Of a DNA stretch of 64,000 nt, positions 20,352-20,688 are shown piece by piece. Position numbers and translations under genes: made by a program. This DNA comes from Escherichia coli (GTDB taxonomy: Bacteria; Pseudomonadota; Gammaproteobacteria; Enterobacterales; Enterobacteriaceae). The stretch lies in NCBI RefSeq assembly GCF_030384885.1, contig NZ_CP128613.1, one strand, 5' to 3'. The notes under the pieces were generated by a model. That model did no database searches, had not been told where the DNA came from, and saw nothing but the letters and a program-made list of their open reading frames with translations. How positions within the stretch are numbered: the first letter of the stretch is position 1; each line of letters begins with the position of its first letter.

Positions 20352-20626
20352 GATGTAAAGAGACTCACGGGTAATGACGATTTCCGCACTGAAAGAAATC
20401 GAAATGCAGTTTTGACAGATATTACGCCTGTGCGCTGTGTTAATGACAAAAGCAGATAAAAAAGTTGTTATTTTTTTTCATAACATGATCAGTGTCAGAT
20501 TTTTACCCAATGGAAAACGATGATTTTTTTATCAGTTTTGCCGCACTTTGCGCGCTTTTACTGTAATCGCACGGGTGGATAAGCGTTTACAGTTTTCGCA
20601 AGCTCGTAAAAGCAGTACAGTGCACC

Positions 20627-20639
20627 GTAAGAAAATTAC
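20627..20639. promoter_or_regulatory. Candidate HexR operator upstream of zwf
   Basis: GTAAgaaaaTTAC inverted repeat about 50 nt upstream of zwf start; resembles HexR palindromes; not verified. Confidence 0.35.
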
Positions 20640-20688
20640 AAGTATACCCTGGCTTAAGTACCGGGTTAGTTAACTTAAGGAGAATGAC

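Follow-up and report, generated by a model that had tools for sequence, protein, structure and literature searches.

The hexR-zwf locus

The window analyzed here is a 64-kb stretch of the Escherichia coli chromosome in which hexR (yebK; 19482-20351, − strand) and zwf (20689-22164, + strand) are divergently oriented and separated by a 337-bp spacer (20352-20688). The hexR product is an RpiR-family repressor with one HTH_6 and one SIS domain by Pfam, and it scored 566 bits against the NCBIfam HexR model NF008451, for which the cutoff is 296. The zwf product, glucose-6-phosphate dehydrogenase, scored 682 bits against TIGR00871. Both gene names are carried by a 100%-identical E. coli record, while the regulator is labelled ‘DNA-binding transcriptional repressor YebK’ in the K-12 RefSeq annotation. 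A first-pass annotation of the window had called a divergent hexR-zwf pair with a 337-bp spacer, and this call was upheld by the profile scores and by the annotation of the identical record. Downstream of zwf are edd (22399-24210) and then eda (24247-24888), and the gene past hexR, on the far side from zwf, is pykA. The 801 bases around the spacer share 100% identity with E. coli strain 2013C-4282 and were found in 5425 of 5426 complete E. coli genomes. Relative to K-12, the spacer differs at five positions only (20415, 20433, 20436, 20560 and 20562), all outside the elements discussed below, and the K-12 literature is therefore valid for the window.

The spacer had also been described as having AT-rich stretches near the hexR start. 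An AT-rich stretch does exist (26–32% GC, 20450-20550), but it occupies the middle of the region, 100–200 nt from the hexR start, and does not adjoin it. Closer to hexR, 27–50 nt upstream of its ATG, is an inverted repeat, CGATTTC-N10-GAAATCG (20378-20401, − strand). The arms of this repeat are 80–99% conserved in the intergenic alignment and the loop is not. In a fold of the − strand the arms form an 8-bp stem (−8.8 kcal/mol), although shuffled sequences folded equally well. We consider this repeat a candidate hairpin of the hexR leader, or else a candidate protein site. A scan of 20250-22450 against Rfam at E ≤ 1 gave zero matches.

A conserved palindrome upstream of zwf

Toward the zwf end of the spacer is the inverted repeat GTAA-N5-TTAC, GTAAGAAAATTAC, at 20627-20639. 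The first-pass annotation had singled out this repeat as resembling HexR operators and placed it about 50 nt upstream of zwf. The repeat is present as claimed and the distance is right, with 56 nt between the repeat centre and the zwf ATG. It is enclosed by an imperfect 6+3+6 palindrome, CGTAAGAAAATTACA (20626-20640), which we regard as a candidate HexR operator of zwf. For scoring we used TGTAATNNNATTACA (TGTAAT-N3-ATTACA), the HexR-type consensus of enteric and other gammaproteobacteria. CGTAAGAAAATTACA keeps 13 of the 15 consensus positions, and both mismatches fall in the left half, which reads CGTAAG rather than TGTAAT and is among the weakest versions of the box. Four boxes within 2 mismatches of TGTAATNNNATTACA were found in the window where 2.4 were expected, so the E. 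coli box is not above chance on its own sequence. The GTAA-N5-TTAC core was counted separately and occurs in 7 copies in the window, compared with 0.57 expected from shuffles or about 1.1 from 4-mer counts. The six copies other than GTAAGAAAATTAC all lie within genes (yecD, znuA twice, yebE, rsmF and yebT), and GTAA/TTAC pairs at spacings other than N5 have 0–2 copies in the window.

We then compared the spacer with 80 Enterobacterales loci, ranging from Escherichia to Pantoea, Rahnella, Serratia and Pectobacterium, that were collected by one HexR-protein scan of species-representative genomes. Because the loci were gathered through hexR itself, every locus sampled carries hexR. The two genes are divergent neighbours in all 79 loci that span both, with a gap of 330–534 bp. 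We found the box in 81 of 81 hexR-zwf spacers (the 80 loci and the window), with the exact GTAA-N5-TTAC core in 75 and a one-base variant in the remaining 6. Every Enterobacterales genome sampled has this HexR-type box beside hexR, at the predicted zwf start. The majority form among the 80 sequences is a perfect 6+3+6 palindrome, TGTAATAAAATTACA. In a MAFFT alignment of these sequences, the box scores higher for conservation than any other 15-mer of the spacer (0.96, compared with 0.67 region-wide), and it is the sole strongly conserved HexR-type palindrome there. It is this conservation across 80 Enterobacterales sequences that lifts the box above chance.

The two halves of the box have diverged unequally. 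The right half, AAATTACA, is near-invariant (0.995), and the left half occurs as TGTAAT, TGTAAG, CGTAAG (the E. coli type), TGAAAT or TGAAAG. No left-half substitution is matched by a compensating change on the right, a pattern which fits a protein site and does not fit a hairpin. Kluyvera, Yokenella and others share the CGTAAG left half, and their boxes have decayed no further. Across 452 kb of related loci, matches with at most 2 mismatches were nearly all the zwf-proximal box. Among the few exceptions, Serratia (TGTAGTAAAATTACA) and Rahnella (TGTATTACAATTACA) have a box upstream of pykA, in the hexR-pykA spacer, and the Rahnella hexR-zwf spacer holds a second box. Since HexR targets pykA in other gammaproteobacteria (PMC5343134), boxes at this position suggest that the motif tracks the HexR regulon and not the zwf start site as such.

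Architecture of the zwf promoter and leader

To place the box relative to the zwf promoter, we located the promoter elements. A scan with the marbox consensus had no discriminating power as a locator (137 matches in comparison with 142 expected), and the soxbox was therefore placed from the literature instead. We take the SoxS/MarA/Rob box of zwf to be the 20-mer ATCGCACGGGTGGATAAGCG at 20566-20585 (+ strand); boxes of this kind are asymmetric, with GCAC and A-rich elements. Against the degenerate marbox consensus ATCGCACGGGTGGATAAGCG shows 3 mismatches, and it is conserved in some genera only (0.56 in the intergenic alignment). In its layout, zwf is a class I SoxS promoter, with 7 bp between the soxbox and the non-optimal −35 element downstream of it (PMC9638938), and ATCGCACGGGTGGATAAGCG has this arrangement, with the GCAC ‘A site’ present and a 7-bp gap before TTTTCG. 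We assign TTTTCG (20593-20598, + strand; conservation 0.81) as the −35. The −10, TACAGT (20616-20621, + strand), follows from the layout of the soxbox and −35 together with a 17-bp spacer, and it is near-invariant across species as TACAGT or TACATT. Transcription of zwf would then start at about 20627-20628, in agreement with a zwf leader of roughly 62 nt.

The box begins 4 nt after the −10 and so spans about −2 to +13 of the zwf promoter. This location, across the predicted start site, is one that suits repression. Of the 80 sequences, 69 have the start of the box 4 nt past the −10 (TACAGT/TACATT), whereas ten have it at 5 nt and one at 3 nt; the gap is thus near-fixed while the rest of the spacer varies by tens of bp. 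A possible tandem second box, CGTAAAAGCAGTACA (20605-20619), is located 21 bp upstream of the operator. We rejected it as a conserved operator because the −10 itself makes up its right half and only part of the Enterobacteriaceae keep GTAA on the left.

The zwf 5′ leader contains a stem-loop (20648-20665, + strand), identified by covariation and folding, in the interval that separates the operator from the Shine-Dalgarno sequence. Among 31 Enterobacteriaceae, 82% of cells in this stem were paired, compared with 25–53% in slid controls, and 18 cells showed double changes, a number that 0 of 500 shuffles reached. RNAfold includes the stem-loop in its centroid structure (−6.7 kcal/mol), and its minimum-free-energy fold has −7.7 kcal/mol. 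Applied to the zwf leader, RNAalifold gave the weak hairpin of the palindrome alone, at −0.75 kcal/mol.

A second conserved block in the spacer

The second most conserved block of the spacer, which we designated block A, lies at 20463-20500; it may be a second HexR site, an element of the hexR promoter, or both. It consists of a TGTTAT-TTTTTTTC-ATAACA inverted repeat with a T7C centre (20466-20485), including a run of eight T (20471-20478), followed by TGATCAGTGTC. Conservation across the block is 0.83–0.93, and the 15-mer from 20466 is the second best in the spacer (0.93). As a HexR box the block is overall a poor fit, with 3–4 mismatches and one good half-site; the E. coli sequence TGTTATTTTTTTTCA has 3 mismatches, and in the majority form, TGTTGTTTTTTTTCATTACA, one half-site is a perfect ATTACA. 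Several roles are conceivable for block A: autoregulation as a weak or half-site HexR operator, a part in the hexR promoter, an UP element or the site of another factor. FNR-like and CRP-like readings of TGATCAGTGTCAG within the block were rejected, as only about 7 of 10 positions match by eye. An FNR ChIP-chip peak has been reported at ‘zwf/yebK’ (PMC1802558), and its centre maps near 20543. We also rejected a predicted sigma-70 promoter for hexR (−35 CTGACA, 20498-20493; −10 AAAAAT, 20475-20470), which is not conserved because in most species the last base of the −10 is no longer T (majority AAAAAC).

The distance between block A and the operator changes in steps. In 69 Enterobacteriaceae, the interval between the end of block A and the operator is 135, 143–147, 154–158 or 165–167 bp, with no intermediates, and a hand count from taxon labels gives at least about 7 independent lineage changes between classes. 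The interval is 135 bp in E. coli and 145 bp in E. albertii; 135 bp in one Citrobacter MAG and 156–158 bp in other Citrobacter; and 147 bp in Cedecea neteri and 158 bp in C. colo. Salmonella, Kosakonia and Phytobacter have 143–145 bp, compared with 154–156 bp in Klebsiella and Enterobacter, and the interval is 165 bp in Mangrovibacter and 167 bp in Entomohabitans. Serratia (about 172 bp) and Pantoea (161 bp) are out of phase. For the related centre-to-centre distances, a Rayleigh test yielded R = 0.54 with a period of 10–10.5 bp, a figure to be read as informal statistics. These steps of about 10 bp across the Enterobacteriaceae hint at a conserved helical phase.

GntR-like boxes at edd

The gluconate repressor GntR, a LacI-family protein, controls edd-eda. 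Using ATGTTAC-N2-GTAACAT, the GntR consensus known from work of the Conway laboratory, we scored the GntR-like operator that had been annotated upstream of edd, ATTTTACCGGTAACAT (22189-22204). This operator proved real and conserved: it has 1 mismatch to the consensus, and of 63 Enterobacteriaceae loci that gave any match, 62 have the site within 2 mismatches and 55 carry the E. coli-identical 16-mer. A second GntR-like box, TTGTTACGCGTAACAA (22411-22426), is found within edd codons 5–10. It has 2 mismatches to the GntR consensus, is a perfect 7+2+7 palindrome and is co-conserved with the box at 22189-22204, with the gap between the two taking values of 210–214, 218–224 or 232 bp only in the Enterobacteriaceae loci. 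A terminator-like hairpin (22243-22277) is also located between the two boxes. The three layers of control that had been proposed to lie within about 2 kb here (HexR, SoxS and GntR) are thus all present.

Discussion

On the grounds of its conservation, its position and its analogy to characterized operators, CGTAAGAAAATTACA at 20626-20640 is probably the E. coli form of the zwf operator for HexR (YebK), a reading to which we assign a probability of roughly 0.8. A HexR operator at zwf is not new, having been published at least as a prediction. As summarized in two later papers, comparative genomics describes HexR in Enterobacteriales or E. coli as a KDPG-responsive local regulator of zwf (PMC5343134, PMC3223726), and both papers cite Leyn et al. 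2011. In these summaries, the Enterobacteriales HexR regulog of Leyn et al. 2011 (RegPrecise) has the same regulator, the same zwf target and the same divergent layout, and nothing substantive in them differs from what we describe; that the published site has the same coordinates as ours we infer. What we add to the known picture is a clear positional model, in which the operator lies over the zwf start site, and the recognition that E. coli carries a weakened copy of the box.

Two proteins of Pseudomonas provide the analogy. In the zwf/hexR region of Pseudomonas, HexR recognizes TTGT-N7-8-ACAA, and KDPG takes it off the DNA (PMC5489143). The Pseudomonas and enterobacterial systems share a divergent hexR-zwf pair and a pseudo-palindrome bounded by TTGT and ACAA; repression by the apo form of HexR, relieved by KDPG, is described for Pseudomonas (PMC5489143) and would apply here too. 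The systems differ in that the enterobacterial box is TTGT-N9-ACAA, with a spacing 1–2 bp longer, and in that the enterobacterial regulon is reduced to zwf (PMC5343134). The operator also resembles that of RccR, a HexR paralogue of Pseudomonas fluorescens with a verified 15-bp operator, TGTAGT-N3-ACTACA (TGTAGTAAAACTACA; PMC5489143). TGTAGTAAAACTACA is identical to the enteric TGTAATAAAATTACA at 13 of 15 positions and has the same 6+3+6 architecture, and RccR is likewise KDPG-responsive, with operators overlapping or near start sites (PMC5489143). RccR is nonetheless another protein with another regulon (aceEF and the glyoxylate shunt). The zwf promoter examined here is the same class I SoxS promoter studied by Fawcett and Wolf, by Griffith and Wolf and by cryo-EM (PMC9638938), a literature that leaves the HexR box at the start site undiscussed.

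The position of the box and the biology of HexR in other bacteria suggest a mechanism. A HexR dimer bound to the box through its N-terminal HTH domains would occlude the zwf start site and would stop open-complex formation or promoter escape. Binding of KDPG, an Entner-Doudoroff intermediate, to the SIS domain would then take HexR off the DNA and derepress zwf. HexR presumably occupies the box and represses zwf in this way in E. coli as well.

The experimental basis for this in E. coli is thinner than the database annotation suggests, with a lone gel shift that missed the box and a negative ChIP-exo experiment. Purified His-YebK shifts ‘the yebK promoter’, and 3 mM KDPG reverses the shift (Parisutham and Lee, PMC4488073). 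We found that the primers for this probe map exactly to 20484-20508 and 20383-20407, so the probe covers 20383-20508 and the box at 20626-20640 is outside it. As described, the gel shift names no control DNA (PMC4488073), which leaves the sequence specificity of YebK binding unproven. In ChIP-exo of YebK-8myc in glucose M9, 16 peaks were reported, none at zwf/yebK (Gao et al., PMC8464067 Dataset S4), and these are mostly at loci that recur in the lists of other factors. The absent peak could reflect release by glucose-derived KDPG, interference from the C-terminal tag or a low-affinity E. coli operator. In the literature we found no report of altered zwf expression in an E. coli hexR mutant.

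These experiments give weight to the most serious rival reading, namely that block A is the functional HexR site in E. coli and the zwf-proximal box a decayed, largely non-functional relic, such that HexR would mainly autoregulate and have little direct effect on zwf. Block A lies within the sole DNA fragment for which KDPG-reversible binding of purified YebK has been demonstrated, and in E. coli it is a perfect TGTTAT/ATAACA inverted repeat; added to this are the weak CGTAAG left half of the zwf-proximal box and the ChIP-exo result in glucose. That same gel shift, as described, names no control DNA, however, and block A fits the HexR box poorly. Moreover, the right half and the position of the zwf-proximal box are strictly kept in E. 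coli, and its CGTAAG variant persists undecayed in other genera. We consider this reading improbable. It is less plausible still that the box owes its conservation to something other than HexR, either as core promoter and initial transcribed sequence or as a 5′ RNA hairpin that stabilizes zwf mRNA. The overlap with the predicted start site and the directly adjoining −10 would suit the former, and a hairpin of 4–5 bp can form (−1.3 to −1.6 kcal/mol, z-score about −3.3). This hairpin is marginal, as the RNAalifold consensus has a compensated change in 0 of 4 predicted pairs, and the left-half variants outside those 4 pairs (C/G in E. coli and A in Pantoea and Rahnella) disrupt the longer 6-bp palindrome with no compensation on the right. 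Invariant palindromes are not normal in initial transcribed regions, and the same box is found away from zwf starts, upstream of pykA and at the second Rahnella spacer site, which leaves this reading very unlikely.

A further alternative is that the box is the operator of a transcription factor other than HexR. The assignment to HexR comes from conservation, position and analogy, and signals for FNR (ChIP-chip, PMC1802558) and YciT (ChIP-exo) have been placed in or near the spacer. Neither is on the box, though, with the FNR centre at about 20543 and the YciT peak at about 20721-20751, and the box is unlike the FNR consensus TTGAT-N4-ATCAA. The box is of the HexR/RccR type of the RpiR family, and in all 80 genomes, each of which was selected through hexR, the motif is found with hexR beside it; another factor at this site would therefore be a long shot. 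Finally, since matches of equal quality are expected by chance in 64 kb, the palindrome might be a chance event in AT-rich intergenic DNA. Comparison of sequences effectively refutes this, given that position and sequence are conserved across 80 species even where the surrounding region is unalignable.

With the zwf-proximal box as the preferred HexR operator, block A may still have a part. The stepwise distances between block A and the operator are the basis of a two-site reading, in which HexR controls both hexR and zwf through two sites on the same face of the helix (20626-20640 and block A), perhaps with a loop; the high conservation of block A and its place in the YebK-binding fragment are further leads, but we consider this reading speculative and unlikely. 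HexR is not known to form loops. NagC, in work by Plumbridge and Kolb, reportedly forms a repression loop at the divergent nagE-nagBACD promoters. NagC would resemble HexR in the two-site reading only, as a sugar-phosphate-responsive repressor with two operators in a divergent spacer and a dependence on helical phase, and it differs in belonging to the ROK family. Of relevance to block A, RccR also reads the same half-sites with a 16-bp linker (PMC5489143), which indicates that RpiR-type regulators can read one half-site at two spacings.

The glucose-6-phosphate dehydrogenase encoded by zwf is the entry to both the oxidative pentose phosphate and Entner-Doudoroff pathways and a main source of NADPH, and its promoter thus integrates carbon status, through HexR and KDPG, with oxidative and antibiotic stress, through SoxS/MarA/Rob. 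Joint control of zwf by carbon status and stress is an established picture, and the arrangement described here is relevant to engineering NADPH supply or Entner-Doudoroff flux in E. coli via hexR or zwf. At this locus, repression by HexR at the zwf start site, activation by SoxS from 20566-20585 and repression of edd-eda by GntR would converge within about 2 kb.

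A stem-loop with compensatory changes in the zwf leader

Between the zwf operator, a candidate HexR box at 20626-20640 carrying GTAA-N5-TTAC, and the zwf Shine-Dalgarno sequence, we identified a stem-loop in the 5' leader (20648-20665) that is supported by compensatory base changes across the 31 Enterobacteriaceae compared. In this set 82% of cells were paired, against 25-53% in slid controls, and we counted 18 double changes, a number that none of 500 shuffles reached. The stem-loop has no match in Rfam, and the short zwf leaders of Serratia and Pectobacterium lack it. The leader is also where Kluyvera differs in length: in three loci from this genus (L029, L031 and L033), 30-150 bp is inserted downstream of the HexR box and ahead of the zwf Shine-Dalgarno sequence, which brings the distance from operator to zwf start codon to 90-215 nt. 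Despite these insertions, the Kluyvera HexR box keeps the same place relative to the zwf -10.

Spacing and repeats within the hexR-zwf region

Among 69 Enterobacteriaceae, the distance from the operator to block A (20463-20500), the second most conserved block of the hexR-zwf region, shifts only by steps of ~10 bp and falls into classes of 135, 143-147, 154-158 or 165-167. On its other side, block A lies 134-141 bp from the hexR ATG in most species and 147-151 bp in Citrobacter. Nearer to hexR, 27-50 nt upstream of its start codon, is a conserved inverted repeat, CGATTTC-N10-GAAATCG (20378-20401). Because the arms of this repeat are kept while its loop varies, we read it as either a hairpin in the hexR leader or a protein site.

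Published ChIP signals also fall around zwf. Converted from the older K-12 numbering, a YciT ChIP-exo peak over the first codons of zwf (U00096.2 1934276-1934306) corresponds to about 20721-20751 in the window, and an FNR ChIP-chip peak between zwf and yebK, at 1934484, to about 20543 (PMC1802558).

Specificity of the HexR pattern

The window holds seven copies of GTAA-N5-TTAC against about one expected, and GTAA/TTAC repeats at spacings of 0-4 and 6-15 occur 0-2 times per spacing. Apart from the copy in the zwf box, all six (at 4815, 14624, 14696, 27443, 36304 and 38487) are in coding sequences. A further sequence, TGTTATAATATCACA (14372-14386), located in the divergent region between znuA and znuCB, matches the HexR pattern with two mismatches. 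It resembles the known Zur box, and the HexR pattern by itself is therefore not specific.

Elsewhere in the window, between yebB and ruvA, is a rare two-gene accessory island (9188-10859). Of 5426 complete E. coli genomes only 19 carry it, and its GC content is 37-46% versus about 53% in its flanks. Both of its ORFs are on the (+) strand; one is 349 aa long and the other about 194-201 aa, and neither had a match in Pfam, PADLOC, PHROGs or NCBIfam (E <= 0.01).

Paired GntR-like boxes at edd

Downstream of zwf, a second GntR-like box, the perfect palindrome TTGTTACGCGTAACAA, lies inside edd, spanning codons 5-10 (22411-22426). It is conserved jointly with the GntR-like box upstream of edd (22189-22204), and a terminator-like hairpin (22243-22277) is situated between the two. 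The spacing from box to box is quantised, at 210-214, 218-224 or 232 bp.
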